DNA of 64,000 nt from Candidatus Omnitrophota bacterium (GCA_903908245.1 CAIVRE010000020.1:2758-66757); one strand, 5' to 3'; positions 1 to 51,258 are shown, counted from the stretch's first letter. Numbers and translations are program-made. Notes: generated from the sequence alone by a model not told the origin.

Positions 1-228
1 GATGCTGCGCATATCGTCAATAAAACCAATGTATGCCGCGTCCAACTTGACAGGAACAATACTTTTAAACCCCGACAGGCGCCGCTCTTGATCATTAACA
101 CAACGGATCCTCCCCTCCAATTCTGATATTTTCCAGGATAACGACCGCCATTGACTCAATCCCCAAAACCCTTGGAAAAAAGCCCCAAACACGACACACA
201 CCCAAAGAATGCCCCACATCTTTTTCAT
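1..228 (-). CDS. Partial membrane-anchored protein, possible GspM/PilO-like partner. Its 3' end lies outside the window.
   Basis: Minus-strand ATG at 228..226 overlaps the TGA of the upstream gene, giving an ATGA overlap. Translation begins MKKMWGILWVCVVFGAFF, a transmembrane helix, followed by a coiled-coil-like SWKISELEGRIR. It sits in the same coupled operon as the secretin and the GspL-like gene. Confidence 0.4.
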   Translation of the reverse strand, partial: MKKMWGILWVCVVFGAFFQGFWGLSQWRSLSWKISELEGRIRCVNDQERRLSGFKSIVPVKLDAAYIGFIDDMRSI

Positions 229-1424
229 ATATTCTCTCCAAAGCCCTTCAAACCCCTATCAAGACGGCTTTTCTGATAGATAACCCTTAAAGCAGGCTGA
301 CCACCTGCAAGCTCATCAACAACTACCGCTTTCGTATAAATCCCCCGGGCATCAAAGAAACCTTCCTCACCTTTAAGAATAAAAACCGAAACCTTCTCGC
401 CGCCCTCTAACCCCGACTCCCAGATAATATTCTGCAATAACCAACCATTCGGCAAAGAATCCAAAAGACTCAAAAAAGACCCCTGCCAGCTGATCACCTT
501 CAACGAACGAAGATACTCCTGATACGTCAAAAGAGAACGCTCTTTCAAAATGGCTTCCCGAGAAACCACCATACTTTCCATACCTTTCATCCGGCTCAAA
601 GCATCCTCACGCAACGTTAACATGATCACCGAAAACAATACCGCCCCGGCTGTTACCAATAACGGCAGCGAGTATTTCAATGCACCCCGACGCCATTCTT
701 CCTGCTTTTGCTTACGCGCCTCTTCTTCAGGCGATGGAAAATGGACGGAAAAACGAGCTCTTTCCAGCACTTCAAAAACTGAAAGCACCGAGTCAACCGC
801 AACAATATCCTCGTGCCCCCGCTGTTTAATAAACGCCTCAAGGAACGCCCCATGATCAGACACCACCTTGACCGCCCCGCACGACCGCAAGCGCTCCAAC
901 AACCGCTTCTCACTGCGCCTCACTTCCTCGGCGATCCGCTCTCCATCCTGAAAAACAAGCTCGCGCGTTTCCACGATCGATAACCCGTCGATAACTGTAA
1001 CGAACACCCGCGCTCCAACATCATTCACCACAATATGTGCTGCGCCTTCCAGGACAAAGCCCGTAGAAAGCAGATACGCCCGGACCGCCAACCCGTATGG
1101 CACGCAAACCTTGATCGAACCCTTGGGAACAATATCGTAAAACCCGCGCAACATTTCTTCCCGCGCGCCCATCACCAGTCCCACTCCGCCTTTCAATCTT
1201 TCCTGACGCATAATGAACCCGCCAGGGAGCTCTGCACTAATCCCTTTATCCGCTGCTGCCGAAAACTTCACTTGCCGATATTCAATCCCTCCCAATAAAA
1301 CGGCCAACTCCTTCGTCGAGCTGAGATCTGATCCCGCAAACTCTTCCAATGACAGCCATTGCAACCCGCCCTCACCGACACAACAAATGCCTCTATCGGT
1401 TAAAATAATGACTTCCATTGTCAT
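225..1424 (-). CDS. GspL-like protein, a PilM-PilN-type fusion: a cytoplasmic actin-like domain, a single transmembrane helix and a periplasmic domain.
   Basis: 399 aa. The N-terminal ~245 aa are soluble, followed by a hydrophobic helix (LPLLVTAGAVLFSVIMLTL) and a ~130 aa C-terminal domain. The size and topology match GspL. A 4-nt start/stop overlap with the secretin gene indicates coupling. Confidence 0.5.
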   Translation of the reverse strand: MTMEVIILTDRGICCVGEGGLQWLSLEEFAGSDLSSTKELAVLLGGIEYRQVKFSAAADKGISAELPGGFIMRQERLKGGVGLVMGAREEMLRGFYDIVPKGSIKVCVPYGLAVRAYLLSTGFVLEGAAHIVVNDVGARVFVTVIDGLSIVETRELVFQDGERIAEEVRRSEKRLLERLRSCGAVKVVSDHGAFLEAFIKQRGHEDIVAVDSVLSVFEVLERARFSVHFPSPEEEARKQKQEEWRRGALKYSLPLLVTAGAVLFSVIMLTLREDALSRMKGMESMVVSREAILKERSLLTYQEYLRSLKVISWQGSFLSLLDSLPNGWLLQNIIWESGLEGGEKVSVFILKGEEGFFDARGIYTKAVVVDELAGGQPALRVIYQKSRLDRGLKGFGENI

Positions 1425-2806
1425 CCCCTCTTTGGTGTGATCAAAACTACCAGCTCAACCCTTGAATGTTTCTCCGACTCATAAGAAAATAACCTCCCCA
1501 GGAATGGAAGACGGCCAAGGACCGGGATACCAAAATGATCTTTACTGCGACTTTTTGTTATCAACCCGCCGATGACCGCAGTCTCATTCGCCTTTAACCT
1601 GACCATAGTATTCATGGACTTCATGGATGTTTCAGGCGCCTCAAGCCGGCTTCCTCCCCCAAGGGCGATCGAACGGATATCATCCACGCTGCTCACCACG
1701 GGCGTTACATTAAGGAATATTTCATCGCCGACCATATTGCCAACGATCTGCAACGTTACGCCGCCATGAACCTCCCCCAGAGAACCGCTGACGATCGTAC
1801 CCCCCGACTGGGTAGTTTCAATATTCGACGATTCAACATACGATCTTGTCGCTCCAACCTGGATATTGGCAACAGTATTATTCAGCATGGCGATCCGCGG
1901 TTGAGAAACGACCTCCACCTTTCCGTATGAATCCAGGGCACGAAGCAATACCTTGACCCCTGTCTCGGTATCCCCGGACCCCGCCTTATTAACCGAACCT
2001 GACAACGTAAATGTCCCTGCTGCGGGGAGATTCTCAGCGGCCATGGTGCTTACCCCTTTAAAGCCTTTAAGATCTCCCCGCTCCATCAATGCCGACCAGT
2101 CGATCCCCAGACGATTCTCATCCGAAAGCTCCACCTCGATCACCTTTACGTTCACCAGGATCTGCCGGCTGACACGTCGATTAAGTTCATCAATAAAACC
2201 CTCAACTGTTTCAAGGACAACCGGATTATCCGTTACCAGCATCACTCCGCCGACCCGATTTAACGACACACTGCCAGACGGAGAAAGCAAGGCTTTCACA
2301 TTACGTTCGGCATCCTCCCAATAGGAAAGTCGCTGGATGGTATTCTCAACCACCACCTTGGTCCCCACACGCACCTTGGAAGATCTCTTGTCCGATGTCC
2401 CGGAGCTATCGGTCAGGCTCTCATTGCTCGTCAAAGTATCAAGCTGCTGTTCCACTGGCGGCAAAGCCAACCGGAACACCTTGCTTTCAACCGCCAGGAT
2501 CACAAGGTCCTGTCCATTAACCTTAAAACCATACCCGTGTGAATAAAGGATCGTATTAAGGGCACGCAACACCGTTACATCCTTAAGATCAACATTAATA
2601 TCCGCTTCTTCAACGCCCTTGCCCAGAACAACCCCTTTTCCCGTCGCATCTGCTAGGCTCTTGATCGCTTCGGTTAATTTGAACGACCCGGTCATCGAGA
2701 CCTTGCGCATCAGCTCCGGCATAACAACCACCGTCTCCGCTGCCCATAATGCAGAAGCCCCCAGTAAAGACGATATCAACCATAAACATAGCCATTGTCT
2801 TTTCAT
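1421..2806 (-). CDS. Outer-membrane secretin of the GspD/PilQ family.
   Basis: 461 aa with an N-terminal signal peptide (MKRQWLCLWLISSLLGASALWA). The C-terminal secretin signature is GGLITKSRSKDHFGIPVLGRLPFLGRLF...VELVVLITPK. A 4-nt overlap with the flanking genes indicates coupling. Confidence 0.8.
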   Translation of the reverse strand: MKRQWLCLWLISSLLGASALWAAETVVVMPELMRKVSMTGSFKLTEAIKSLADATGKGVVLGKGVEEADINVDLKDVTVLRALNTILYSHGYGFKVNGQDLVILAVESKVFRLALPPVEQQLDTLTSNESLTDSSGTSDKRSSKVRVGTKVVVENTIQRLSYWEDAERNVKALLSPSGSVSLNRVGGVMLVTDNPVVLETVEGFIDELNRRVSRQILVNVKVIEVELSDENRLGIDWSALMERGDLKGFKGVSTMAAENLPAAGTFTLSGSVNKAGSGDTETGVKVLLRALDSYGKVEVVSQPRIAMLNNTVANIQVGATRSYVESSNIETTQSGGTIVSGSLGEVHGGVTLQIVGNMVGDEIFLNVTPVVSSVDDIRSIALGGGSRLEAPETSMKSMNTMVRLKANETAVIGGLITKSRSKDHFGIPVLGRLPFLGRLFSYESEKHSRVELVVLITPKRG

Positions 2807-3237
2807 TTGATCTGCCTTTCATTAGGAATAACCAAAGGTAACGCGGTAATATCGGCAGCCAAAACCTCAACATGCTCAGGATCCGGCCGAATATCAGAAC
2901 GCAAAGGAAACCCACCGGCTTTTATCCATTCACCGGGGGTAATAATAACAAGCTCATTATGTTCAGGATAAAAGGCTCCTCCCTGAACATGCGCCGGAAT
3001 ACGCACCTCCTGCACCAACGGTGCCGCCCAATTACTGCCACCTAAATAGGGGAAGCCGTTGCCGTTCATCCCATCCGCCATCCTGCCTAGATTCTCTTTG
3101 ATCCCCCGCTGGTAACCTTCGTCATATGCCACGCCGTAACGAGGCGTACCGGTCGATACGCAACCACTCAGAGCCCCGGCCATAACGACCAGGATCAATA
3201 ATATTCTAACGAACCCCATAAGGATGCTCCTTTGCAC
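2803..3237 (-). CDS. Small lipoprotein, possibly a pilotin or PilP-like secretin accessory.
   Basis: Lipobox ...VVMAGALSGC follows a hydrophobic leader. The protein is 144 aa. It overlaps the traC 3' end and the secretin 5' end. Confidence 0.5.
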   Translation of the reverse strand: MQRSILMGFVRILLILVVMAGALSGCVSTGTPRYGVAYDEGYQRGIKENLGRMADGMNGNGFPYLGGSNWAAPLVQEVRIPAHVQGGAFYPEHNELVIITPGEWIKAGGFPLRSDIRPDPEHVEVLAADITALPLVIPNERQIK

Positions 3238-5686
3238 ACTGTTTAAGCGCGGCTAACAGGTCTCCGCCCAAACGCTCACGAACAACATTAAGATATTCAT
3301 TGTTTCGCGGCTCAGTATTGGCCGCCCAGTACAAAAAAGGATCCGGTACAAGCCTTATTACACCGGACGATGACGGCGTTATCACCAATGCCTCGGAATA
3401 CTGCCCCTTGACCATATTCAAAGATCGCAAAAGGGCAGTACTCTCCTCACTAAGAGACAGCTCCCTCTTAAAACCTTCGATCAAACTGGGATCCTGTCTT
3501 AAAAATATTTTATTGGAGGTGTTTGCCAGAACAGCTCCCCCTGCTTTCTGCTGAAGAAGGTCGCCAGCCTCCTGCGTAACGGCCACCGCTGAACAACGAT
3601 ACTTCCGGAAGGTCTTGAATGCATTGGCTATAAAATCAGCTGTATTAGACATCTTGAGCAACTGCCATGCTTCATCGATAATGAGAAACTTGCGCTCCGC
3701 GACCACGGCACTCTCGGAGACAAAATTGGTAATAAAGAACATGATATTCAATAACACGACCAGCTGCAGATCAGGATAACGTGACAATTGCGCCAGCTCA
3801 AAGACCGTGAAACGCCCGCAAGACGACAGCTCATTGGGCCCATCGAAGAACTGTCCATACTGCCCATCTTTAGTGAAAGGCGTCAAGCAGAGCGCGAGCC
3901 GTTGCCCCATATCCGCAGGCAATCCCTTCGCTTCACTACAAAAAGGATCTTTAAGCACTTTAACAATATCGCTCAGAATAACCTCTCGGTCCGGGTTTTG
4001 TTCGTACGCCTTGAGAATACTGATCTGAAGCAACCCGCGTTCTTCACGCCCCAAGCGGTCGCGTTCATCGCCACCGGAAGCCATCATGGCAAGCATCTCG
4101 ACCAAGAAAGCTTGGGTTTCCGCTGTAGGTCTTCGATAGAACGGATTAATACACAACGGCTTATCCATCTCGAATGAAACGTACTGCCCGCTTAATACTT
4201 CACATGTCTTGCGATACGAATGCCCCTTGTCCAGTACAAAGAAATATGCGCCGAGACGATAATTCTGATAAATAAGATCGTTGGTCAAAAACGACTTCCC
4301 TGCTCCGGAAGCCCCAATGATCACTGCGTGCGGATTAGTATCAGAGTCGAAGAAATCAATACCTACAGTCTCTGCCCGGCGGTTAAGATACAAAGCCGCC
4401 GGCGTACGCGTACCCCGGAAAGCCCCATACCACGGCAGCAGATCACTAAAGTTATCCGCTAATAACCGACGTGTTCTGCGAACAAAATGATCATAGGCAT
4501 GATCAAAATTCAGCGGAAGGCAGCTCAAGAACAATGAAGGCGCAATAATCTCCTCTTTCAATCCCTCAGCTCCAAGACGGCTGAGGCTGGCTATGAATGC
4601 GTCCGCAGAACGATCCGCTTCATCGGCGGTCGCTGCAAACGGGATAAAATGAACCCGGCCATATACCACCGCCCTGCCGCCTTTAAATGATTCGCTGATC
4701 AAAGAACTAAGCTCTTCTTTCTTCTGGACCGCCTCTTCACTGATATCCCCCAATGAGGAAGTTCTTTGAATAAACGCAAACGCCTTCTGGAATTTAAGAC
4801 GCGCAAGCGCCTGCGATTGATCGGGAATAATAAAATTCATGACAACCAAGAATTCACGACAAACATCTAAAAGAGACGGCCCATTGCCTGAAGAACAGGT
4901 GACCATGCCTGCCCAAGTCCTCGATGGAAGCTCTTTAAGTGTAACCACACGGGTATGCCGGCCATCAAGGACAAACCCCCGTCCTTCAGCTAATGGCGCG
5001 TTATACAGGATCTGATCCCTGATAAAACGCCCCGCGGTTTTCTCTTTTTTCACCTGAAGTGAACGACGCGGATTAAGCACACGATACAAGAAATGGATCA
5101 CATCATCCGCATCCAACACTTTTAACAGCATCCCTGTTGCACGCAAGGCATTCTCGAAAGGGACAACAAGCTTCAAGAACGTTTCATGCTCTTTTTCAAA
5201 AATACCAGGGCCATAGTGACCCCCGACGACAAAATACACACGTGCGCGTCCAGGCCAGGATGGTGCTTGAAATTGAGGAAAATACCGGGCCGTGAGGAAC
5301 ACCCTTAATTCACGGGGAAAAACAGTCTTTTGCAAATGTTCAAGTTTCTCATCGATGGCTGCCCGCACGATCCCGGAGGCCTCTTTCACCCCGGCCATCC
5401 GATAATCGTCCAGGTTCGCACTGATATCCGTATCACTCCAAAGAATAACTTGAAGGCAAAGCCTGGATGAAAGGCGGCTCAGAATGCCCGCAACCTGGGA
5501 AGAAAAATCATCCAACATATCCATGGAAGCGGCCTCTGCCCCAAAGGGCTTGACTTCCCACACCCGGCCAAGGCTGCCATCGACATTCACAAAAACACCT
5601 CCCACCTCATCCGCATACGGTAAATGATCCAGCAGCGATGGCCCCTCATTAAATATCTTCTCAATATCCAAAGCCGTTAAAGCCAT
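3206..5686 (-). CDS. traC: TraC/VirB4-family conjugative type IV secretion ATPase.
   Basis: 826 aa. The Walker A region VIIGASGAGKSFLTNDLI...FVLDKGHSYRKTCEVLSGQYVSF...INPF aligns with F-plasmid TraC (SGAGKT...DMGDGYKSLCENMGGVY...FNPF). Confidence 0.8.
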   Translation of the reverse strand: MALTALDIEKIFNEGPSLLDHLPYADEVGGVFVNVDGSLGRVWEVKPFGAEAASMDMLDDFSSQVAGILSRLSSRLCLQVILWSDTDISANLDDYRMAGVKEASGIVRAAIDEKLEHLQKTVFPRELRVFLTARYFPQFQAPSWPGRARVYFVVGGHYGPGIFEKEHETFLKLVVPFENALRATGMLLKVLDADDVIHFLYRVLNPRRSLQVKKEKTAGRFIRDQILYNAPLAEGRGFVLDGRHTRVVTLKELPSRTWAGMVTCSSGNGPSLLDVCREFLVVMNFIIPDQSQALARLKFQKAFAFIQRTSSLGDISEEAVQKKEELSSLISESFKGGRAVVYGRVHFIPFAATADEADRSADAFIASLSRLGAEGLKEEIIAPSLFLSCLPLNFDHAYDHFVRRTRRLLADNFSDLLPWYGAFRGTRTPAALYLNRRAETVGIDFFDSDTNPHAVIIGASGAGKSFLTNDLIYQNYRLGAYFFVLDKGHSYRKTCEVLSGQYVSFEMDKPLCINPFYRRPTAETQAFLVEMLAMMASGGDERDRLGREERGLLQISILKAYEQNPDREVILSDIVKVLKDPFCSEAKGLPADMGQRLALCLTPFTKDGQYGQFFDGPNELSSCGRFTVFELAQLSRYPDLQLVVLLNIMFFITNFVSESAVVAERKFLIIDEAWQLLKMSNTADFIANAFKTFRKYRCSAVAVTQEAGDLLQQKAGGAVLANTSNKIFLRQDPSLIEGFKRELSLSEESTALLRSLNMVKGQYSEALVITPSSSGVIRLVPDPFLYWAANTEPRNNEYLNVVRERLGGDLLAALKQCAKEHPYGVR

Positions 5687-6042
5687 CAGCGCCCCTCTCC
5701 CTCGATGAACCAGCGCGTTCGTTCAAGCATCACGAACGACCAATGCCCGCCCACCATGATATTCTTGTCCTCTTTAACAATATGGGACGGCACCCAAACC
5801 TTGATAACTCTCGGGAGAAGGATCACCGGAAGATATGGCTTCACCACCCCGAGTGGCGCATCCAGCGAAAGAAGAGGTCTCCCTTCAGCGTCCGTCTTTT
5901 CCGCCTGCTTGGCCTGACGATAAGTCTCCGCGAACGTACGGGCCTTCTTTTCATCAGAAGCCCTCTGTCCCGACGATGAAACAGAAGCGCAGCCGCTAAT
6001 CCAAATAACGAACATTATCAGGCTTATTGCTCTTAAGGCCAT
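5686..6042 (-). CDS. traV: TraV-like outer-membrane lipoprotein of the type IV secretion core.
   Basis: 118 aa. The signal peptide carries a lipobox (IWISGCAS). It sits between the TraB-like and TraC genes, as in F-type operons. Confidence 0.5.
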   Translation of the reverse strand: MALRAISLIMFVIWISGCASVSSSGQRASDEKKARTFAETYRQAKQAEKTDAEGRPLLSLDAPLGVVKPYLPVILLPRVIKVWVPSHIVKEDKNIMVGGHWSFVMLERTRWFIEGEGR

Positions 6043-7132
6043 TGATCCGCACTCCTTCCAGAATGATCAAATATACATCCACCCCCGACTCAACCCGAAC
6101 CGCAGGAATGATGGAACTCAGTTGATCCGCATAATATTTTGATAATTGCGCCGCACTTTGAGAGAGTCCCTGAAATGCGGCATACCTGCCAACACTGCCT
6201 GTCACATTACGTGACACCCGCCCGCTCGATGACCTTACAGCCGTTGTCTCTCCATCCGCAATGGCCCCGGAAGCACCTCCCAAAAAACCGGTCATGAACG
6301 ACGATGCCATCTGCGCCCCCGTATTGCGCACAACGACCCCCCGGATCCCAAGCTCTCCGTTAATATCCGTAACATACCCGATATTACCCTGCTGTTGGAA
6401 CTCCCGGCCATCCGGCAATATCGCAGACAATGTCACTGCCTGGATGAGCGCCCGCTCACTATTAAGCTCGCCAACAGCTTTCCCGATCACAAACGCGCCC
6501 TCGAGAGGAATTCGGGCCTCATTCGGACCATAAAACGCCTCATTCAAACGAATAAGCACCGGCAACGGATTATTCTGGTCCGAAGGAGCATAAACCCCGG
6601 TCAAAAGCGTTCCGCGAACAAAACTTCCCGACGGCAAGAATACGCCCTCTTTCTCCGGTTCCGATACAGGATTAATATTAACGACTTCCAACCGATAACT
6701 TTCAACACGCCCCCCTGCCGGAGAAAGGGAAGGTTTCTCCGCAAATTTTGTTTCCAACCTCATGACGCTATCATTGATCCCTCCCTGGATCTTCAATACT
6801 TCAGCGATCTTTTTATCCAACACTTCAATCTGAACTTCCATCTGATGGCTTCTTTCCTGCGCGCCATGATATTGTTCTTCCAGTCGCCCGACAAAAGCCT
6901 TGCGGTCCACATCCTCGTCAAGAAATAACCCCGACCGTTCCATATTCGACGCCTTTGGCTTATCGATTTCCAATTCACGTTGCCTTGGACTCTCGGAGAT
7001 CTTTTCAACCTTCCTTGGCGCATGATTTGATGAAAAAACAAATAACAGGACAAAAAAAAGAGCACCCCCCACCCACAACCACATACGGCGGTCATTCATC
7101 AATAACTTGAGCCTCTCGAGTATTTCATTCAT
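5996..7132 (-). CDS. traB: TraB/VirB10-like core protein of the type IV secretion system.
   Basis: 378 aa. It has an N-terminal transmembrane segment, a charged linker and a C-terminal TrbI/VirB10-like beta domain. The operon position matches F traB. Confidence 0.6.
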   Translation of the reverse strand: MNEILERLKLLMNDRRMWLWVGGALFFVLLFVFSSNHAPRKVEKISESPRQRELEIDKPKASNMERSGLFLDEDVDRKAFVGRLEEQYHGAQERSHQMEVQIEVLDKKIAEVLKIQGGINDSVMRLETKFAEKPSLSPAGGRVESYRLEVVNINPVSEPEKEGVFLPSGSFVRGTLLTGVYAPSDQNNPLPVLIRLNEAFYGPNEARIPLEGAFVIGKAVGELNSERALIQAVTLSAILPDGREFQQQGNIGYVTDINGELGIRGVVVRNTGAQMASSFMTGFLGGASGAIADGETTAVRSSSGRVSRNVTGSVGRYAAFQGLSQSAAQLSKYYADQLSSIIPAVRVESGVDVYLIILEGVRINGLKSNKPDNVRYLD

Positions 7133-7842
7133 CGCGATGCCACCATATATAAAATGCCCTTCGATCCTGAAGTCCCTGCAGCGGTCAAAATATCTTTCTG
7201 CGACGTCACCGCCAATAAACCCGGAAAATTAAACTGTTCCACCGGTATCACCAGGGACTGCGGCAATAAATTCTCCGCCGTTAGAACATAACCGACGATT
7301 TCCGGCATTTCATACATGAACATTGTCCTGATCCGCACCCGGGCATCTTCAAAGATCACTGTTTCACGCAAGGTTTCCACCGCGCCGGATGGCGCACGCC
7401 CCGCCGCCAGTTCCCGAATAAGGTCAATGCTTGAAAGCGTGCTTGTCTCGGTAATACCTGCCTCCTTCTGGGGCTCAATGACCACTTTCTCATCAAATCC
7501 TTTATCAAAAACAAATTTAAGCCGGTACGAACGCCCGATACCGTCGATAACCACCAGCTCGGCAGGATCCCGCAACAACGGCGTAATGAATAAATGCCCC
7601 GCCACGTGTTCCACTTTTAGACTTGCCGCATCACCCGAACGGACAATATTGGAAACCCCGCCTCCAACGACGACCTCAATGGCCTTTCCCATCTCGGACC
7701 GGACTTCCACCGCCCCCTCCTGCAACACATGTTTCACCTCCTGGGCCTCGGCACACACCACTGCGCCAAAAACAAGGACAAGGACCAACGTGCATCTATT
7801 TTGTCTCAACGGACACCTCTTCTTTCCTGATATCCAACACAC
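7129..7842 (-). CDS. traK: TraK-like (VirB9/secretin-N-like) core protein of the type IV secretion system.
   Basis: 237 aa with a signal peptide. The C-terminal block AENLLPQSLVIPVEQFNFPGLLAV resembles F TraK [24 protein letters not shown]. Confidence 0.55.
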   Translation of the reverse strand: MCWISGKKRCPLRQNRCTLVLVLVFGAVVCAEAQEVKHVLQEGAVEVRSEMGKAIEVVVGGGVSNIVRSGDAASLKVEHVAGHLFITPLLRDPAELVVIDGIGRSYRLKFVFDKGFDEKVVIEPQKEAGITETSTLSSIDLIRELAAGRAPSGAVETLRETVIFEDARVRIRTMFMYEMPEIVGYVLTAENLLPQSLVIPVEQFNFPGLLAVTSQKDILTAAGTSGSKGILYMVASR

Positions 7843-8434
7843 TTAAAGCATATGGATTATCCCCGGTTGATGCCGACCTCAATAACACGACCACAAAACA
7901 TACAGGTTCAACCGACATTTCTTCTTTCCCCATATAGATCCCGCGTTTCCCCTCCATCGCAACCTTAAAAACACCTTTGTCTTCTTCAACCCGCGGCTCA
8001 GCTGTCAACATAAACACACTGGATAATCGATCCCGGCGGATCTTCTCAATCTCATCAGCAGCCCGCGCATGCACCCGGGATAGCAAGCCCGGAGCCATGG
8101 ACTTTGACGAACGCGTATAAACACCCTCGATCGTGTCCGGCGTATAATTCATCCATCCCGTCAACCACATAACAGCAAAACTGCGTACCGAAACCAACGG
8201 GACATTATCCGGATAAGACATGCCGGAAGACACCGCACCGGGAATGTAATACACCGCCTTTGGACGAGTCACAGAATAGGCGAATGCTATCAGCACAACA
8301 ACCAATAGCCCCGACAATAAATATACGCCCCTGCGCATCTGAATGTTTTCATTCTCCGCACGCGCATAACGTTCAAAAAAAATAGTGCTTTTGGACCTCA
8401 GCGGCTTATCCGCATTAACACGTTCATCACCCAT
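7796..8434 (-). CDS. traE: TraE-like (VirB8-like) bitopic inner-membrane protein.
   Basis: 212 aa with a single N-terminal transmembrane helix. It lies between the TraL-like and TraK-like genes, as in F. Confidence 0.5.
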   Translation of the reverse strand: MGDERVNADKPLRSKSTIFFERYARAENENIQMRRGVYLLSGLLVVVLIAFAYSVTRPKAVYYIPGAVSSGMSYPDNVPLVSVRSFAVMWLTGWMNYTPDTIEGVYTRSSKSMAPGLLSRVHARAADEIEKIRRDRLSSVFMLTAEPRVEEDKGVFKVAMEGKRGIYMGKEEMSVEPVCFVVVLLRSASTGDNPYALSVLDIRKEEVSVETK

Positions 8435-8781
8435 TAATAAACCTCTTCCCTGCCATATACCGCATACCGGCCTTCTCCCGGAGGAAGAAGCCCATCGAAT
8501 GGAATGCCCGAACGATATAAAAGATGGACCATAAACCCTTCCGGCCTCCCGCGCTTAAGCGCGGCTAACAAAGGCCAACTAATAAAAAACAAAATAAGCG
8601 GAACCGTTGGCGTTAATATGACGGCAGGAATACCAAAAAGCAGCATAAGCACCGCCACATCCTCCCCCTCAAGCCCAAGAATTAATAATGGCCGATCGAT
8701 CGTCCGCGGGCAATTACGCATAATTAAAATATGTTCAAAAAATTGGGTAAAAATACCAGCGCCAGCAATGCCAGAACACAC
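8434..8781 (-). CDS. traL: TraL-like (VirB3-like) protein. The likely start is the internal Met near 8721.
   Basis: ALKRGRPEGFMVHLLY matches F TraL KLKKGRGSSWLRDLIY. It has two hydrophobic segments and lies directly downstream of the pilin. Confidence 0.6.
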   Translation of the reverse strand: MCSGIAGAGIFTQFFEHILIMRNCPRTIDRPLLILGLEGEDVAVLMLLFGIPAVILTPTVPLILFFISWPLLAALKRGRPEGFMVHLLYRSGIPFDGLLPPGEGRYAVYGREEVY

Positions 8782-9014
8782 CCCACGGCAGCCCCATAAT
8801 CCTTATGGACGATCTTCCAGATCGCTACGATCAGAAAGATCAAGGCCAAAACCTTGGATGCTGGCCCGGTCATCACCTTTACCATAAAACCAGCCAGATT
8901 ATTGAACTCTTCACTGGCCTTGTCCTCTGCTCCAGACGTTTGAGCCCACACCGCTGAGTACGACGATAAACCCGCCCATAAGAAACACAACAGCCATAAT
9001 TTGATCTTTTTCAT
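8724..9014 (-). CDS. TraA/VirB2-type conjugative (pro)pilin.
   Basis: The start MKKIKLW at 9014 overlaps the TGA of the upstream gene (ATGA). There is a ~24 aa signal peptide, followed by a ~70 aa mature protein with two hydrophobic helices. It is the first type IV secretion gene before the TraL-like gene. Confidence 0.55.
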   Translation of the reverse strand: MKKIKLWLLCFLWAGLSSYSAVWAQTSGAEDKASEEFNNLAGFMVKVMTGPASKVLALIFLIVAIWKIVHKDYGAAVGCVLALLALVFLPNFLNIF

Positions 9015-10237
9015 ACAGCTCCCTTTCTTTTGAACATCATCAGAGGCAACAACAATACAGCCATCGCCAACAATCCCACAACACCTACCAGAGGCATATC
9101 CCACAAAAAGACTTTTCCCCCGTATAAAATATTATTAACATCAAACACCAGCGAGGAGACACGATCGATGATCGCCCAAAACAACGGGATCAATTTCAAA
9201 ACAAAAAGATATTTCAAGAAAACCCACAACAAAGAAATATCAGAACTAAAGAACACAAATACCAGAAAAAATGGGAATGCCGCCCATACACTCCAAAGGC
9301 ACGCTCCATACAGGACCGGAAAGACCGACAGCCAGACACGGCTCATCTGGTCCACCATAGCGCCCGCTCTGACATTTAAAGTCATGCTGCGGGCCTGAGC
9401 GGTCTCCTTCTGCCCCGAAAAACTCATGGCCGTATATGCCCATGAAGCATGGGCGGCATCCGCCTCTATTAACGCACGCACTGCCGCGTCTTTTAAGGAA
9501 CTGCCGTCATAATAATCGCGTGAAACCCTTTCAAATAACTCATCCTTGTTGATGAACGTATAAATAGCATCTTCCAACACCCTCCAATCGGATGCAGCCT
9601 GAGACGTATATAACGGAAGAATTTCCTCAGAACCTGGCCATAATGACTGTCCAACCAAAGGATCTTTTTCATTGAGCGTACGCAAGGCCTGAAAATAATG
9701 ATCCTGATAGAAATTAACCAGTTTCTCTTTTAACAACTGATCATTAAGACCCGCCATCAATCGATCCCGTGTCAACAACCAAAACTTAGACGTAGAAAAA
9801 GGCTCTTTCAGGAAACTTGCATTATGACCACGCGCCCGATCAACCACCGAGATCATGCCATTAGTGAAAGCGGACATTCCTTCTGCGAGAAACACTACTA
9901 CGGGACTTGCCAAAAGTTGATCGATCCCGGCCTTCCTTAATATGTCATCAGTCCTGATTTGAACGTACCCGCCCCCTTCCATACCAGAAAGCGGCAGTCT
10001 TAGGGGCGTCCTCGGCATGATCAGCAGAAACAAAAAGGAAAAGAATATCGAACAAAAGAATATGACTGAGGAAAAATTTGCATTCTTCAAAGAACGCGAC
10101 ATAGAAAAAAGAAAACCGGAAACAAAAATAACCTTTCCTGCCAATGTCTCAATAAAAATATACCTCATCAAGGCTGAAGATTGATGAAGCCCAATCAATT
10201 CGAATGCGTTGTCAATTGGTGTTATTCCACAAGTCAT
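9011..10237 (-). CDS. Polytopic membrane protein, first gene of the operon. A VirB6/TraG-N-like role is possible.
   Basis: 408 aa. Transmembrane helices sit at both ends and flank a ~250 aa soluble domain. It is translationally coupled to the pilin gene. Confidence 0.4.
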   Translation of the reverse strand: MTCGITPIDNAFELIGLHQSSALMRYIFIETLAGKVIFVSGFLFSMSRSLKNANFSSVIFFCSIFFSFLFLLIMPRTPLRLPLSGMEGGGYVQIRTDDILRKAGIDQLLASPVVVFLAEGMSAFTNGMISVVDRARGHNASFLKEPFSTSKFWLLTRDRLMAGLNDQLLKEKLVNFYQDHYFQALRTLNEKDPLVGQSLWPGSEEILPLYTSQAASDWRVLEDAIYTFINKDELFERVSRDYYDGSSLKDAAVRALIEADAAHASWAYTAMSFSGQKETAQARSMTLNVRAGAMVDQMSRVWLSVFPVLYGACLWSVWAAFPFFLVFVFFSSDISLLWVFLKYLFVLKLIPLFWAIIDRVSSLVFDVNNILYGGKVFLWDMPLVGVVGLLAMAVLLLPLMMFKRKGAV

Positions 10238-10349
10238 GATTTCCTATCAAATCTTAATTGATTAAACATCAATAGATATACGACAAGAAGCCAAAAAATA
10301 CAAGAACTATTTTTATCTTTCATCAAATTATTTGATTTATTAACAACTA
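10238..10349 (-). promoter_or_regulatory. AT-rich upstream region, the probable promoter of the type IV secretion/secretin operon.
   Basis: This is the only sizeable non-coding gap, about 110 nt and AT-rich, before the 10-kb run of overlapping minus-strand genes. Confidence 0.35.
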
Positions 10350-11648: not shown

Positions 11649-13592
11649 TCAATCGCCCTTGAACTGCTTGAGAGCCTCCGCCTGAAACCCGGGAGGCATA
11701 TGGTCGAAACGGGTAAAAACACTCATGCTGCTTTTCATGGTCCTGATAAAAGGCGTTCCGTTAACAACGCGAATGCCTTCTTCTTTCTTGGTATCATAAA
11801 CCAGCATACACGGGTCAAATGCCCCTCGGGGAAGCGGCGCGCTGGCTGATGGATTGTCCACCTTGACATGCTCTATCCGTAAATTCCTGACCCCTGCTTC
11901 TTTTATAAAGACCCACATCGGATATTCCCAGGAATCCCCCGTCAAGACCAGTCCGATATCCTTGCACTGGTATTGCGTCACTTGCTGGCTCAAAGCCACG
12001 TATACCGGATACACCGCCGACCAATGGTTGAAATACTGCTGTTCCCTTGAAACATTGAAAATATTCTTCTGTGCGATCAAAGGCCGCACGGAATTGCCGA
12101 ATACCCATGGCAATGCCGCAACCAGTAAAAAGCCCGATACAACGACCGCCGCCTTGCGGCTGACGGCATTCTCAAGGACCAGCGCCGCCCATGGAGCCAG
12201 CAACACAAAGACCGGTAAATGATAACGGCAACTGAATGGAGACCACTGGACCATCACAACAAACAAAACAAATCCCGCTATAACCGCCAATGCATATTCT
12301 TTGGCAACGGACGGAACCTTGCGCGCATACCGCCAGGCCAAAACCCCGGCGATCAAATACAACAGCAAGTGGGCTGCGTTACCCGCCACATCCTCATTAA
12401 GAGGAGAATGCAGGTCAAACGGGGCCGCCTCCCCCATCAAGGCCCGCGCATCATTGCTCTGGCCGATACCCCCAAGGATCCCGTTCACGCCTGATGAAAC
12501 AAACCTGTTCGCGCCATCCCATGGCGTCGAAAGCTGCATACCCGCGCTCCGCACCATATTCCCCAGTGTTCGTCCACCCAGGTCGCTCCAGGAAAGGACA
12601 TGGGCTGATTCAGACGGAGGAATGATCGTCCGGGTCAACGACAGATTACGGGTGTAATAAAACACATTCAACCCCAGCGCCAACAAAAGAATACCTGCCG
12701 CCAACAAGATACCCTTTAGAGCTCCATTTTTCCTGGCGATCATCACAGCAAACCATCCCAACAGCACCAGGCCGTAAAAATATGGGGTCCCCTTTACAAA
12801 GAACGCCAGTCCAAGAGCCACACTAGCGGAAAACAAGAAAAACCGACGGCCCGTGCGGACAAAGAGCAATCCGGAAACAACGAACGCAATAAGTCCCAGC
12901 GCTGCCAGATAATCATTCTGCGTGCTGTTAGACTGAAGGATCCCCATCGGGATCGCTGCCGCTATGGCCACAGACATCACCTGCCCCAACCGCCCTGCTC
13001 CCAAAAGCTGGGCGATCAAAGAAACCCCTGCCAGGCTCAACACCATCGCGCCCCATTGCACCACAGGCGCCCAGCGGTCCCCCCCGGACAGGATCTGAAA
13101 ATGCAGGATACAATAAGACCCGAACGCAGGCAAATTCAACTGTTTGATCATGGATGTCGGATAGTTTGCCACCGTTCCGTCCTGGATCCAATGCATGACC
13201 CTCGCCATATGCGTCGTCATCGAATCCCATGTGTTGGGAGGCGCGACCACAGCAATTAAAAAACTTGCCGCAACGATCCCTGCTGCCCCCCATAACAACC
13301 CCGTTTCAAAACGGTCAAAAGAAACCGCCCCAAAAGACCGGACATCTTTCTTACTGCCACGATACCTGATCCACGATCCCAATCCGGCGCACACCGATAA
13401 CCACCAAACAAACACCGGCCAGAAACTCAACCCCTGGAACATACTTAACAATTCTGTCGCGCATAACAATAAGCCGCCCCACAGGACAGCGCCCAAGAGG
13501 ACAGCCGTACGGCGCATACCGGCCTCCGCCGGCAAAAACTGCCAGCAAAAGAACATGCAGAGGAGCAATGCAACAATAAGGATCCCTGTCAT
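11649..13592 (-). CDS. Membrane glycosyltransferase with a GT-C fold, ArnT/PMT (GT39)-like.
   Basis: 647 aa. About 12 transmembrane helices are followed by a C-terminal soluble domain, the typical architecture of PMT_2 family proteins. Confidence 0.45.
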   Translation of the reverse strand: MTGILIVALLLCMFFCWQFLPAEAGMRRTAVLLGAVLWGGLLLCATELLSMFQGLSFWPVFVWWLSVCAGLGSWIRYRGSKKDVRSFGAVSFDRFETGLLWGAAGIVAASFLIAVVAPPNTWDSMTTHMARVMHWIQDGTVANYPTSMIKQLNLPAFGSYCILHFQILSGGDRWAPVVQWGAMVLSLAGVSLIAQLLGAGRLGQVMSVAIAAAIPMGILQSNSTQNDYLAALGLIAFVVSGLLFVRTGRRFFLFSASVALGLAFFVKGTPYFYGLVLLGWFAVMIARKNGALKGILLAAGILLLALGLNVFYYTRNLSLTRTIIPPSESAHVLSWSDLGGRTLGNMVRSAGMQLSTPWDGANRFVSSGVNGILGGIGQSNDARALMGEAAPFDLHSPLNEDVAGNAAHLLLYLIAGVLAWRYARKVPSVAKEYALAVIAGFVLFVVMVQWSPFSCRYHLPVFVLLAPWAALVLENAVSRKAAVVVSGFLLVAALPWVFGNSVRPLIAQKNIFNVSREQQYFNHWSAVYPVYVALSQQVTQYQCKDIGLVLTGDSWEYPMWVFIKEAGVRNLRIEHVKVDNPSASAPLPRGAFDPCMLVYDTKKEEGIRVVNGTPFIRTMKSSMSVFTRFDHMPPGFQAEALKQFKGD

Positions 13593-13621
13593 AACCTCAA
13601 TCTTTCCTGTTGTAAGTCATC

Positions 13622-14479
13622 TCAACCCAATGACGGCGAAAACCCGTCGAGCGAATCCAGGGTGAACTCAATGCCTGCCGTATCCGTATGCCGCCGGGCC
13701 AGGCCAGCCGGCGGAACAACAACCAGCCTGATCATATACACGCTGCTGGATCCATAATACAGGCGGAATGTTGAACCGGGATGAAAAACAGGGCTTCTTA
13801 AAACCTTTTGCAATTTAGGAAAAAGGCGCTGCAACAGATACTTGACCCGGCCCTGGGCCGCAATATCACGCAATAATATTTCATCGACCAGTATCTCCTC
13901 CCCCAGCCAGCCCTTCCTGAAATCTCCCTCGCCCTGGACAATGACCTTTACACTGATCTCGCCGGCAAAAGACAGGGGGGTCTTTTCGATCAAACGCCCC
14001 ATCAACTGGCCTGTCATATCCCAGGCCTTCACCATATCAAGGAATTCTCCCGCCTGTTGAACAGCCCCCTCTCCCTCCAATACCGGGAACCACTGCAACC
14101 ACGCCGCGCTGATCCTAGCCCAGATATCCCCCAAAGACGGATCCACTCCGACGGCTCTGTGCATTATATTGCTGACCTCGACCCGCGCGTCATAGGGGAT
14201 CTCTTTAATAAAGCGGGCCTCAAGGGCCGAAGAGGGGTCTTTCGGGTGACGATGCCATACATAGAGCATGGTGCCATCACTCCTGATGATCATCCCGCTG
14301 GAAGCGCCAGGCTTCTGCAAAGGCACAACCAGCCCGTCGTCAACGATCACCTCGACCGGATCAATGCCATGGTCCATTGCCGAAGGAAGGCTCATGGTGA
14401 CCGCGTGATGGCTAAGCCGACGGGGAAATCTCCCCTCATCGACAAACCCGAACTCCTGCAACCGGCCTTGAGGGATCAT
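13622..14479 (-). CDS. Hypothetical protein.
   Basis: 285 aa ORF. A 4-nt overlap with the upstream cysteine-rich small ORF indicates coupling. No recognisable motif. Confidence 0.35.
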   Translation of the reverse strand: MIPQGRLQEFGFVDEGRFPRRLSHHAVTMSLPSAMDHGIDPVEVIVDDGLVVPLQKPGASSGMIIRSDGTMLYVWHRHPKDPSSALEARFIKEIPYDARVEVSNIMHRAVGVDPSLGDIWARISAAWLQWFPVLEGEGAVQQAGEFLDMVKAWDMTGQLMGRLIEKTPLSFAGEISVKVIVQGEGDFRKGWLGEEILVDEILLRDIAAQGRVKYLLQRLFPKLQKVLRSPVFHPGSTFRLYYGSSSVYMIRLVVVPPAGLARRHTDTAGIEFTLDSLDGFSPSLG

Positions 14480-15795: not shown

Positions 15796-16608
15796 TCAAT
15801 AAAGGCCGTAACCACCCATAATAATATCAATAAGCCGTTCGCCCCAGAAAAGGCTGACCAGCGCCCCGATCACAAGATACGGCCCGTAGGCGATCGTACT
15901 GTCCTTGGTACGGATCTTCTCGATGATCCCCACGACCGCGCCGAAGAACGGAGCAACAAAAAATGTCAACAGCGCCATTTTCCACCCCATGAACGCGCCA
16001 ACCATTGCCATCAGCTTCACATCCCCGCCGCCCATGGCTTCTTTCTTGAAGATCCACTCGCCCAAAAGCCCCATCAGGTAAATGGACCCACCGCCGACCA
16101 GAACCCCGAGCCCGGAATACAGCAGGGCCTGCCACCAGACAGCCGTATGATGCAACTGAGGGACCAAAGGGCTGATAATAAGCCCTGCCACCATCCCCCC
16201 CACACTGACCTCATCGGGGATGATCCGCTCGTCAAAGTCCGTGAACGTCGCCACAATAAAGCAAGACAACATTATCAGATACGGCAAAAGCTCCAGCGTA
16301 AGGCCATAATACATATAAAGGCCAAAGAAAACACAGCCGGTCAGCAGCTCGATAAAGAAATACCTGACAGAGAACGGAGCGCCACACGCGCGGCATCTCC
16401 CGCGCAAAAGCCAATAACTGATCAGCGGAATATTATCATACCACTGGACCGGCTTGCCGCACTTAAAACAATGCGAACCAGGGGAAACAACAGACTGTTC
16501 TTTAGGAAGGCGGACAATGCAGACATTAAGAAAACTGCCGATCATGGCCCCGGACAAAAAGAACAATACACGGTAAAAGAGATCGATCGTCATGACTTCG
16601 TATAACAC
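15796..16608 (-). CDS. pilD: Prepilin peptidase (A24 family), PilD.
   Basis: N-terminal CxxC...CxxC zinc motif (CFKCG...CRACG). Polytopic, with a GGGDVKLM catalytic region. Confidence 0.85.
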   Translation of the reverse strand: MLYEVMTIDLFYRVLFFLSGAMIGSFLNVCIVRLPKEQSVVSPGSHCFKCGKPVQWYDNIPLISYWLLRGRCRACGAPFSVRYFFIELLTGCVFFGLYMYYGLTLELLPYLIMLSCFIVATFTDFDERIIPDEVSVGGMVAGLIISPLVPQLHHTAVWWQALLYSGLGVLVGGGSIYLMGLLGEWIFKKEAMGGGDVKLMAMVGAFMGWKMALLTFFVAPFFGAVVGIIEKIRTKDSTIAYGPYLVIGALVSLFWGERLIDIIMGGYGLY

Positions 16609-28268: not shown

Positions 28269-28301
28269 GCAGTGCTACCTCCTGGTGATGAGAACAAAGA
28301 G

Positions 28302-28374
28302 AGCGGCGGATGGGGTTCGAACCCACGACATCGACCTTGGCAAGGTCGCATTCTACCAACTGAATTACCGCCGC
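28302..28374 (-). tRNA. tRNA-Gly (GCC).
   Basis: Reverse complement GCGGCGGTAATTCAGTTGGTAGAATGCGACCTTGCCAAGGTCGATGTCGTGGGTTCGAACCCCATCCGCCGCT. The anticodon loop TTGCCAA gives GCC. Confidence 0.9.
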
Positions 28375-28470
28375 ATTATGTCGAACAAGAGCAATAAAAT
28401 GAAAATTATTTTAACATTAAGCGAAATCGTGTCAACAAATAACGATACCCAATGGAAGTTTTTCTCAAAA

Positions 28471-28551
28471 TGGGCGGGAGAGGACTTGAACCTCCATTCC
28501 TTACGGAACCAGATCCTAAGTCTGGCGCGTCTGCCATTTCGCCACCCGCCC
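28471..28551 (-). tRNA. tRNA-Leu (TAG).
   Basis: Reverse complement GGGCGGGTGGCGAAATGGCAGACGCGCCAGACTTAGGATCTGG...GGTTCAAGTCCTCTCCCGCCCA. It has a long variable arm. Anticodon TAG. Confidence 0.85.
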
Positions 28552-28555
28552 TGAA

Positions 28556-28618
28556 TTTTCAAGAATTCTTGAAAATTCATCCCTTGGCTCTGGTGGGCCC
28601 CTACAGGGCCCCCAGCCA
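28556..28618 (-). repeat. Inter-tRNA spacer with a perfect 20-bp palindrome and an adjacent GC-rich ~18-bp hairpin.
   Basis: TTTTCAAGAATTCTTGAAAA lies at 28556-28575. The hairpin CCCTTGGCTCTGGTGGGCCC-CTACA-GGGCCCCCAGCCAAGGG follows at 28578-28618. Confidence 0.5.
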
Positions 28619-28648
28619 AGGGGGCTTCCTCTCAATAATTCCAAAAAA

Positions 28649-28724
28649 TGGTGACCGACCCGCGACTCGAACGCGGCACGCCAGCCTTAAAAGGGCTGTG
28701 CTCTACCAGATGAGCTAGTCGGTC
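28649..28724 (-). tRNA. tRNA-Lys (TTT), with CCA encoded.
   Basis: Reverse complement GACCGACTAGCTCATCTGGTAGAGCACAGCCCTTTTAAGGCTGGCGTGCCGCGTTCGAGTCGCGGGTCGGTCACCA. Confidence 0.9.
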
Positions 28725-48314: not shown

Positions 48315-49673
48315 TCAAGGATGAAGCTCGCCCTTTAGCTGATGCGGAGTGGCACGGACAATGCGGGCATGAACGATCTGTCCGGGCGTAAATTCGCCGT
48401 TCGACAAGGTAACGATCTTGTTGGCATCATTACGCCCATAGGCGGCGCCGCTTTTTACCTTACCCGCCTGCTCCATCATGATCGCCTGAACCTGGCCAAC
48501 AAGCAATTGATTCTTCTTTAACGAAATATCCGTTTGCATCACGTTTAACCGTACAATACGCCCGGTCTTCTTGTCCTCCGGGACATCATCTTTAAGGTCC
48601 CGTGCAGCTTTAGTGTTGGGACGTACCGAATATTTAAACATGAACGCGGAATCAAACTCAACCTCGCGCATCACCCTGACCGTATCTTCAAACTCCGCAT
48701 CTGTCTCGGTAGGAAACCCGACAATAACATCCGTACTCAGAGTGATCGACGGGCAAGACTGACGGATCTTGCAGACCAGAGCAATAAATTCTTTCCCTGT
48801 ATATCCACGGCCCATCAACTCCAGGACCCGGTCATTGCCTGCCTGAAGCGGTAAATGGATCTGCTTGCAGATCTTGGGATCCTCCGCCATCACCCGGATA
48901 AGATCATCAGGAAAATCCTTGGGGTGAGGCGACGTGAAACGGATCCGCTTTATACCGTCAACCCTGGCAACAGCCTCAAGAAGCCGGGCAAAATTCTTGC
49001 CCTCATGATGATAGGAATTTACATTCTGCCCGAGTAAAGTGACCTGTTTGAACCCTTCTCCCGCAAGACGTTCAACCTCCGCAATAATATTCTCAACGGA
49101 ACGGCTGCGCTCCCGGCCTCTTGTAAAAGGAACAATACAAAAAGAACAGAAATTATTACACCCGCGCATGACCGCAACCCAGGCGTTAACTCCGTCGGTA
49201 CGGGTAGGATAAATATCCGCATAAGTCTCGAACTCGGAAAGGGTCACATCATAGCCCTGCTGATGCTCCTGCTCCAAAGCGCGCAAAATATGAGGCAACC
49301 GTTTGTAACTGTCCGGGCCTACCACAAAATCCAAAGCCAATTTCTTGTCTTCCAAAAGCTCTTTGCGTAACCCGGTAGCCATGCACCCGAGAATACCGAT
49401 CAAGACCGCCTTGCCCTGCCTGCGATGACGGATCTCGTGAATATTGCCGTAAACCTTGCGATGCGCATTCTCGCGCACGGAACAAGTGTTGAGCATCACA
49501 ATATCAGCCGCAAGTTCATCAGGCGTAAACTCATAGCCGGCATCGATCAGGATCGACTTGACCAGCTCGGAGTCGTATTCATTCATTTGACATCCGTACG
49601 TAACCAAAAGCACACTGAGTTTTCGCTTTCCGTTTCCGTCGGTGTTTTCTCTATTTCTCTCATTTGCATCCAT
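48315..49673 (-). CDS. miaB: tRNA methylthiotransferase MiaB (radical SAM enzyme). The 5' end overlaps the integrated element.
   Basis: TYGCQMNEYDSE N-terminal domain, radical-SAM CNNFCSFCIVP and a C-terminal TRAM domain. An alternative GTG start lies near 49613. Confidence 0.85.
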   Translation of the reverse strand: MDANERNRENTDGNGKRKLSVLLVTYGCQMNEYDSELVKSILIDAGYEFTPDELAADIVMLNTCSVRENAHRKVYGNIHEIRHRRQGKAVLIGILGCMATGLRKELLEDKKLALDFVVGPDSYKRLPHILRALEQEHQQGYDVTLSEFETYADIYPTRTDGVNAWVAVMRGCNNFCSFCIVPFTRGRERSRSVENIIAEVERLAGEGFKQVTLLGQNVNSYHHEGKNFARLLEAVARVDGIKRIRFTSPHPKDFPDDLIRVMAEDPKICKQIHLPLQAGNDRVLELMGRGYTGKEFIALVCKIRQSCPSITLSTDVIVGFPTETDAEFEDTVRVMREVEFDSAFMFKYSVRPNTKAARDLKDDVPEDKKTGRIVRLNVMQTDISLKKNQLLVGQVQAIMMEQAGKVKSGAAYGRNDANKIVTLSNGEFTPGQIVHARIVRATPHQLKGELHP

Positions 49674-51256: not shown

Positions 51257-51258
51257 CT

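Follow-up and report, generated by a model that had tools for sequence, protein, structure and literature searches.

Introduction

Type IV secretion systems (T4SSs) paired with a type IV pilus are known from the IncI1 plasmid R64 and from islands of the PAPI-1 and ICEclc type. A 2025 review treats the PAPI-1-type partnership as a chimeric system and sets out both R64 and PAPI-1 as separate-module cases that pose open questions (PMC12857230). Here we analyse a 64,000-nt stretch of DNA from a Candidatus Omnitrophota bacterium (the window), in which a single minus-strand operon (positions 1-10349) joins the genes of an F-type T4SS (tra genes) to a secretin and to two bitopic proteins of the kind found in pilus and type II secretion system (T2SS) assembly. 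An earlier note, made from the sequence of the window alone, had read the operon as an F-type core that had taken up a secretin and GspL- and GspM-like proteins in the absence of a type IV pilus. Comparison with related loci points elsewhere. With a probability of about 0.7, the window holds locus A of a split, co-regulated and Omnitrophota-specific composite of an F-type T4SS and a type IV pilus, domesticated as a contact system.

The Omnitrophota are widespread, uncultured and mostly ultra-small bacteria, thought to be parasites or predators of other microbes. Our literature search found no paper on tra genes or on a tra-secretin operon in this phylum, its incomplete coverage making this an absence of evidence only, and with the same incomplete coverage an F-type operon with an embedded secretin was not found described in any organism. 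The Omnitrophota genome surveys that could be searched report only type IVa pili, Tad pili and giant proteins, and no T4SS.

Results

Relatives of the operon were gathered by context look-ups and by a metagenome scan with TraC alignment. The source is a Candidatus Omnitrophota bacterium, as is every named relative, and so far the system has been found in this phylum only, as judged from the sequences collected. The contig identical to the source of the window comes from a groundwater-type metagenome series. In exact-sequence look-ups TraC was matched and the 399-aa L-like protein described below was not.

All 12 minus-strand open reading frames (ORFs) delimited in the earlier note were confirmed with the same boundaries, start codons being those in independent gene calls on the identical source contig. 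They follow one another almost without intergenic space. The note had described every junction as an overlap of the 4-nt ATGA type or longer, which is true of seven of them (4 to 47 nt) but not of TraL/TraE and TraV/TraC, which overlap by 1 nt each, nor of pilin/TraL, where the gene-caller start leaves a gap of 2 nt. Inside the run there are 10 promoter-like matches against 11.4 in shuffled sequence, and 18 terminator-like matches against 14.6, which was judged to be no excess. The operon is one translationally coupled run, and the earlier description of it as single and unbroken holds.

The F-type identity of the upstream part is clearest in TraC (826 aa, 3206-5686), a VirB4-type ATPase that matches PF11130 TraC_F_IV (E 4.5e-26, 92 bits, cut-off 28) and PF19044 (E 1.4e-43). 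Its best NCBIfam match is TIGR02746 (E 2.7e-115), the score of 386 bits lying under the equivalog cut-off of 567 bits. TraL (VirB3-like, 95 aa, 8434-8721) matches PF07178 (E 2.8e-7, 31.2 bits, cut-off 24.4), TraE (VirB8-like, 212 aa, 7796-8434) matches PF05309 (E 2.4e-8, 34 bits, cut-off 24.8), and TraB (VirB10-like, 378 aa, 5996-7132) matches PF03743 TraB/TrbI (E 3.9e-21). These four proteins all exceed their Pfam cut-offs. TraB residues 163-367 are moreover collinear with residues 197-399 of F-type TraB in solved structures (7spb, which is F-plasmid TraB, and 7okn; E 1.6e-16), and the alignment spans the presumed antenna stretch with small gaps only there.

Three further members of the core give weak profile matches of their own and are backed by position, by a lipobox or signal peptide, and by orthologue profiles. 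TraK (VirB9-like, 226 aa with a signal peptide, 7129-7809) matches PF23536 TraK_C at E 0.023; a profile of 13 TraK orthologues, searched against the Protein Data Bank (PDB), matches only the VirB9 homologues TraO and TrwF (E 0.06), and its place between TraE and TraB agrees with the call. The TraV-like lipoprotein (VirB7-like, 118 aa, lipobox ISGC, 5686-6042) matches PF09676 at E 0.019; its orthologue in the related locus L014 has a weak TraV match, and a C-terminal motif is kept in 12 orthologues. The TraA/VirB2-like pilin precursor (96 aa, 8724-9014) consists of a signal peptide followed by two hydrophobic helices, and matches PF04956 TrbC/VirB2 at E 0.0099 and NF041281 TraA at E 0.034. No protein of the operon is more conserved, the identity to its counterpart in L003 being 88%. 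The F-type calls of the earlier note are thus borne out, for TraL, TraE, TraB and TraC by profile and for the remaining three by context: an F-type VirB4 is present, as are TraL, TraE, TraK, TraB and TraV with the pilin in the order of the F plasmid.

The first gene of the operon (408 aa, 9011-10237) encodes what the earlier note had called a polytopic membrane protein. That description stands, and a relative now places the protein as a homologue of TraG_N, the VirB6-type component of F-type systems. It has no Pfam match of its own. It aligns by BLASTP with the product of L006:1912-3300 (2e-43, 26% identity over 421 residues), which matches PF07916 TraG_N at 4.2e-14, and its L014 orthologue has a weak TraG_N match.

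Directly after TraC lies a conserved lipoprotein (138 aa, lipobox LSGC, 2803-3219) that matches no Pfam or NCBIfam family. It had been counted with the downstream, secretin half. It also comes right after TraC in the secretin-free cluster L006 (E 3.5e-23, 41% identity), and every long-form locus introduced below has it. Since it occurs in a canonical F-type cluster that lacks a secretin, the lipoprotein belongs by its distribution to the tra lineage.

The secretin (461 aa with a signal peptide, 1421-2806) is well supported, its C-terminal domain, which marks members of the type IV pilus and filament group, matching PF00263 at E 8.3e-33 (113.8 bits, cut-off 27.5). The best families are TIGR02519 MshL (E 1.3e-61) and TIGR02520 PilN (E 1.4e-48; 165.7 bits against a cut-off of 287.65), and all of its NCBIfam scores fall under the equivalog cut-offs. 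Against the GspD-type family TIGR02517 it reaches 119 bits, the cut-off being 351, and GspC and GspG to GspK were not found in the window, so that the marks of a T2SS are missing. The nearest plasmid relatives are PilN proteins of conjugative plasmids, at 26-29% identity; with the score below the PilN cut-off and no PilO2 or PilP partners detected, the secretin does not qualify as part of a PilN-family thin pilus. It is 54% identical to the secretin of the long-form locus L014.

The secretin is followed by an L-like bitopic assembly protein (399 aa, 225-1424), in which a single membrane helix joins a cytoplasmic domain of some 240 aa to a coiled coil and a periplasmic domain. The cytoplasmic domain is of the actin-like GspL/PilM type, as in the bitopic GspL and PilM-N proteins of type IV filament systems, and the GspL-like fold proposed earlier is supported. 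The last gene of the window encodes an M-like bitopic protein in the GspM/PilO position (1-228), of which the window holds the first 76 of 156 codons and the source contig the remainder. Its N-terminal membrane helix, long helix and C-terminal alpha/beta domain agree with the topology of GspM and PilO, and every short-form and long-form locus has an orthologue. Searches by profile and by fold gave no information on its GspM/PilO identity. Neither the L-like nor the M-like protein found a family in Pfam or NCBIfam, whether searched as single proteins or as 54 family members, or in searches of their profiles against PDB sequences. Alignment of both profiles by hhalign with PilO2 and PilP of an IncK2/Z plasmid of mating-pair formation type I (MPF-I) gave a probability of about 1% or less, and none of 72,556 plasmids carries an L-like protein. 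A second, divergent copy of the system in the metagenome-assembled genome (MAG) nCal2bin1, which also holds a short form, has the L-like and M-like proteins fused in one ORF of 521 aa (L025, 536-2101). Such a fusion speaks for an interaction between L and M like that of GspL with GspM. The fusion in L025 is followed by an 865-aa protein without a family match.

The source contig (L001) was used to read past position 1 of the window. Beyond the M-like gene it carries an antitoxin/PemK toxin pair (15981-16554), then a 412-aa protein, and then unrelated genes. The 412-aa protein is a TraH homologue, with a BLASTP value of 1e-31 to a relative that matches PF06122. Of TraW, TraU, TraN, TraF, TraH and TraG, which the earlier note expected here, only TraH is present. 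The toxin-antitoxin pair recurs in L004 (13879-14443), and L007 keeps a short PemK fragment (15969-16046); in L003 and L005 there is no such pair, and TraH comes directly after the M-like gene. Because TraH follows the M-like gene, the trio of secretin, L and M lies within the tra operon and has tra genes both before and after it.

Three architectures can be distinguished among the loci gathered. One is the conventional F-type conjugative cluster of MAG OFTM38 (L006, 1912-17038), which includes TraG_N, a TraD-like coupling protein, TraU, a thioredoxin-like protein, TraF and TraH, and has no secretin. The long form, a single operon of about 20 kb found in at least seven loci (L010, L014, L016-L019 and L026), starts with TraG_N, the pilin, TraL, TraE, TraK, TraB, TraV, TraC, the lipoprotein, secretin, L and M. 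It continues with a 155-aa signal-peptide protein in the PilP position, a GspE-type ATPase, a GspF platform protein and three type IV pilins, and ends with TraU, a 125-aa protein and TraH. The ATPase has a GspE core and an MshE-type N-domain that binds cyclic di-GMP. The pilins carry type IV pilin leader sequences; one has a phage tail-collar domain, and one of these collar pilins gives only a weak N-terminal GspG match. L010 had been considered as a stand-alone pilus cluster, an idea dropped when tblastn placed TraC and the lipoprotein directly upstream. The short form, seen in the window and in L003, L004, L005 and L007, corresponds to the long form without the genes that separate M from TraH.

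Within the 64-kb window there is no homologue of a type IV coupling protein, T2SSE, T2SSF, TraU or TraF, nor of the other L006 genes beyond the shared core; TraN, TraW and TrbC were not searched with profiles of their own. Genes for GspE, GspF and type IV pilins were found neither in the window nor in the 10 kb beyond it. The short form was considered as a reduced system that had lost pilus ATPase, platform and pilins, a view dropped once a second locus was found in the same MAG. The long-form ATPase family includes a 515-aa sub-clade, one member of which lies in the MAG of L003 on a different contig (L029). The order there is SpoVG-like protein, pilin, pilin-like protein, collar pilin, TraU, 128-aa protein, homologue of the 155-aa protein, ATPase and platform, and these nine genes are exactly those missing from the short form. 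A second locus of 71% identity with the same chromosomal neighbourhood (L030-L032) lies on contigs from the sample series of the window contig, and the assembly ERZ18625568 holds both the exact M-like protein of the window and the exact second-locus ATPase. The ATPase, platform and pilins that the window lacks are present in the nearest related MAG, at its second locus, and in metagenomes of the window's sample series. From this we infer that the genome of the window carries the second locus too, and that in its lineage the pilus genes and TraU would have moved and not been lost. The earlier reading of an F-type core that gained a secretin with GspL- and GspM-like proteins and no pilus is not supported, as a pilus module stands at the same position in the relatives and, in this lineage, at a second locus. 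A different split occurs in L027, where ATPase, platform, pilins, TraU and TraH stand alone. A divergent HTH_3/Cupin_2 regulator and a response regulator adjoin the second locus.

The two loci are tied together by a palindrome. The intergenic leader of the window operon (10238-10349), its likely promoter, contains two copies of TTGWT-N5-ATCAA, at 10258-10272 and 10332-10346, which flank conserved hexamers resembling -35 (TTCTTG) and -10 (TATATC) boxes. In the 64-kb window 0.41 strand-matches to the pattern would be expected and there are four, at three sites, of which two lie in the 112-nt leader. The spacing from the start codon, at about -35 and at -106 to -110, is the same in all five short-form loci, and the motif also precedes the first gene of long-form and second-locus units. 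A looser pattern, TTG-N7-ATCAA, was counted across 340 kb of loci: 32 of its 55 sites fall in 2.4 kb, where 0.16 would be expected, clustered in the 150 nt that precede the first gene of short-form locus A, of the long-form operons, of the second locus and of the differently split units. Upstream of L006 and L022, the canonical conjugative clusters, it was not found. As the same motif recurs before first genes that are not homologous (TraG_N, SpoVG-like protein, ATPase), both loci probably form a common regulon that is switched together, the palindrome having the look of an operator.

The third copy in the window, TTGTTTTTTCATCAA at 7027-7041, lies about 90 nt into traB, with an equivalent match in L003, L005 and L007; it may be an internal operator or merely conserved coding sequence. 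In one long-form clade the SpoVG-like gene (87-92 aa) stands between L and M (L010 4022-4294, L016 8071-8349, L017 11923-12195, L019 6097-6369), and in the split lineage it heads the second locus directly downstream of the palindromes (L029 6026-6289, L030 667-930). Because SpoVG proteins bind nucleic acids, this one may be a regulator of the system.

Over all pairs of loci the identity of the secretin tracks that of TraC, and the two modules have therefore descended together from the time of their joining. Five genomes have every ORF intact. Between the window and L003 or L005, nonsynonymous divergence (dN) lies far under a saturated synonymous divergence (dS) in all 13 genes, with dN of 0.145 for the secretin, 0.135 for TraC and 0.064 for the pilin; dN/dS values are rough because dS is saturated. 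The divergence of the short-form L-like protein is about that of long-form pairs at equal TraC divergence. On these comparisons the genes of the operon appear to be under purifying selection.

In the remaining 54 kb of the window, Pfam scans of the larger ORFs give housekeeping genes, namely rpsB, tsf, pyrH, frr, metK, ahcY, pfk, ilvC, leuA, aroE, fba, suf genes, nadA, ispG/ispH and murB. The synteny leuA-aroE-prepilin peptidase-fba-U32-tra is kept in three other MAGs. By this housekeeping context and the neighbourhood conserved in other MAGs the locus is chromosomal and vertically inherited, and neither a plasmid nor an ICE (integrative and conjugative element). No integrase, relaxase or coupling protein was found over about 74 kb in this case or over 21 kb around L014, and tblastn with an Omnitrophota TraD homologue found none in the 64-kb window or at any secretin-type locus. 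A coupling protein together with a relaxase in the same element, the mark of a conjugative system, is thus missing from the surroundings covered.

The prepilin peptidase of this synteny block (A24_N_bact and Peptidase_A24 domains, 15796-16608, minus strand) has aroE and fba as its neighbours, is 5.5 kb upstream of the operon and keeps this position in L003 and L005. It could process the type IV pilins of the second locus. Between fba and the U32 peptidase, at 11649-14479 on the minus strand, are two genes, for proteins of 647 aa (with a weak DUF6057 match) and 285 aa. The 647-aa gene is missing in L003 and L005, so the stretch upstream of the operon is variable.

Elsewhere in the window, a 557-aa large serine recombinase (Resolvase, Recombinase and Zn_ribbon_recom domains) adjoins an 809-aa protein with the helix-bundle domain of the NrS-1 primase-polymerase (49583-54478), and G+C is low (0.445) at about 54000-58000, past this pair. 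The recombinase/primase region is probably a small integrated mobile element. The recombinase is about 39 kb from the tra operon, with core genes in between. Nearly all long ORFs of positions 1-64000 are on the minus strand and GC skew is negative in every 2-kb bin; a monotonic cumulative skew is as expected within one replichore. A tRNA cluster (Gly-GCC, Leu-TAG, Lys-TTT) lies at 28301-28724, and Rfam and tRNA scans gave no match at the operon locus itself.

Discussion

We propose that an ancestral single operon was split. Locus A would have kept the tra core, secretin, L, M and TraH, while the pilins, TraU, ATPase and platform would have moved. The secretin, L and M, together with the ATPase, platform and pilins of the second locus and with the prepilin peptidase, would assemble a type IV pilus for the capture of a target cell, and the collar-domain pilin may serve as its adhesin. 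From its family matches the pilus half resembles the MSH/type IVb/T2SS-like kind. TraG_N, TraA, TraL, TraE, TraK, TraB, TraV, TraC, TraH and TraU would form a complete F-type channel for contact-dependent transfer, one that has an outer-membrane core of its own in TraK, TraB and TraV. Pilus and T4SS would be co-expressed and act in sequence, like the thin pilus and T4SS of IncI plasmids and like PAPI-1. The secretin most likely works for the pilus and not for the secretion channel. With no coupling protein or relaxase nearby and with vertical inheritance, we favour a domesticated cell-contact system of host-dependent nanobacteria over a conjugative element.

That the two modules are expressed and used together, as the earlier note held, agrees with the position of the trio between tra genes, with the co-divergence of secretin and TraC, and with the common palindrome. 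Its further suggestion of a secretin standing in for the outer-membrane core of the T4SS, or added to it, fares badly: TraK, TraB and TraV are all retained and intact, and replacement of the core by the secretin was dropped as an explanation.

Several points weigh against the composite as we describe it. Its functional part, capture followed by transfer without conjugation, is inferred. A coupling protein or relaxase could sit elsewhere in the genome, the search having covered the window and the loci gathered. The link between the window and the second locus comes from co-occurrence in samples and from the closest related MAG. The M-like protein is assigned by position and topology, and the sequence searches linked the L and M proteins neither to GspL/GspM nor to PilO2/PilP. 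The loci behind the motif statistics are related, so a P value overstates their independence. Finally, TraU lies amid pilus genes and the secretin amid tra genes, which would suit a single machine equally well.

Such a machine would be one fused trans-envelope assembly in which the secretin is a shared outer-membrane conduit and L and M link TraC, the VirB4 energy centre, to it. This is a milder version of the idea in the earlier note, with the parts of the second locus taken in, and a reading we hold to be rather unlikely. It draws on the placing of the trio between TraC with its lipoprotein and TraH, on the presence of TraU and a small tra-linked gene among the pilus genes and, as its best argument, on the fact that after the split both loci still mix both sets of genes. 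The translationally coupled junctions, the secretin and TraC diverging in step and the shared operator also fit, as does the failure to find TraF; TraW, TrbC and TraN were likewise not seen, though not searched for with their own profiles. If real, the fused machine would attach to another cell and move material in or out. A variant in which L and M bridge the TraC complex and the pilus platform, forming a hybrid class specific to host-dependent Omnitrophota, seems to us doubtful to a like degree. Interleaving, however, speaks for co-expression and not for physical fusion; a full conventional set of pilus genes exists for the secretin to work with; and the retention of TraK, TraB and TraV, with TraB aligned through its presumed antenna, implies that the T4SS has an outer-membrane core of its own. 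To our knowledge no T4SS uses a secretin.

Three further readings carry still less weight. A self-sufficient F-type T4SS with only a secretin and GspL/M-like proteins and no pilus parts, which is the earlier interpretation taken strictly, is very improbable and largely refuted: it is in keeping with the lack of GspE, GspF and pilin genes in the window and the next 10 kb and with a trio under purifying selection, but the nearest related MAG and the metagenomes of the window's samples have the missing genes as a second locus, the ancestral operon holds pilus genes, and the second locus carries the same operator. We give scarcely more credit to a conjugative element, be it an ICE or a plasmid remnant, in which a thin pilus aids mating and the coupling protein and relaxase lie elsewhere on the element. 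The phylum does contain a canonical F-type cluster with a TraD-like protein (L006), the nearest plasmid secretins are conjugative PilN proteins, R64 and PAPI-1 offer precedents, and some genomes have a toxin-antitoxin pair inside the operon. Set against this are the housekeeping genes on both sides, a position conserved in several genomes, the lack of integrase, relaxase and coupling protein over about 74 kb here and 21 kb at L014, an L-like protein present in none of 72,556 plasmids, and a serine recombinase 39 kb off and past core genes. Least credible of all is a decaying remnant in which secretin, L and M are non-functional leftovers of a deletion. One deletion, of what lies between the M-like gene and TraH, would indeed convert the long form to the short one, yet five genomes with saturated synonymous sites have all the ORFs intact, the secretin is about as constrained as TraC (dN 0.145 and 0.135), and the short-form L-like protein diverges much as do long-form pairs at equal TraC divergence.

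A chromosomal, vertically inherited T4SS interleaved with a pilus module in what is probably a single regulon makes the composite a concrete candidate for the cell-contact apparatus of Omnitrophota. It may also be regarded as a natural experiment in the domestication of a conjugation machine, and in how close the coupling of a type IV pilus to a T4SS can become, beyond R64 and PAPI-1. Directly testable handles are offered by the palindrome, by the fusion of L with M and by the existence of split and unsplit forms, and the conventional cluster L006, which lacks both secretin and palindrome, is a useful outgroup for the origin of the composite.

Among known systems, the mannose-sensitive haemagglutinin (MSHA) pilus and the T2SS are the closest to the pilus half, their assembly platforms having MshL and GspD, MshI and GspL, MshJ and GspM, and MshE and GspE as counterparts: MshL is the best secretin family, the cytoplasmic domain of L has the GspL/PilM fold, and the long-form ATPase carries an MshE-type domain. 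The scores are nevertheless sub-equivalog, the gene order differs from that of msh and gsp clusters, L and M match no curated family, and the genes are embedded among tra genes. PAPI-1 and ICEclc-type islands, which have VirB4 and VirD4, combine a T4SS ATPase and an essential type IVb pilus as one transfer apparatus, which is the likeness to our locus; they are mobile, with a coupling protein, a relaxase and a G-type T4SS, whereas here the core is F-type and, from its context, not mobile.

R64 pairs its T4SS with a type IV pilus made of PilN, PilO2-type protein, PilP, ATPase, platform, pilins and a tip adhesin. The pil cluster of the IncK2/Z (MPF-I) plasmid, used as a stand-in for that of R64, has a secretin, a protein of about 400 aa, one of about 150 aa, ATPase, platform and pilins in the same order as here. 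In contrast, the Tra/Trb T4SS of R64 is of the MPF-I (Dot/Icm-like) type, its PilL-V cluster is separate, and the whole is plasmid-borne and conjugative; our secretin scores under the PilN cut-off, and L and M have no detectable similarity to the stand-in's PilO2 and PilP.

The T4SS half is closest to the F plasmid and its mating-pair formation system (MPF-F). They share the set and order TraA-L-E-K-B-V-C, TraG_N and TraH, with TraU at the second locus, a VirB4 with the TraC_F_IV N-terminal domain, and a TraB that aligns to the TraB of the solved core. Unlike the F plasmid, the Omnitrophota locus is chromosomal and has no genes for TraD, a relaxase or an origin of transfer (oriT) nearby. Here TraG_N alone heads the operon, and the secretin and pilus assembly genes are intercalated among those of the T4SS.

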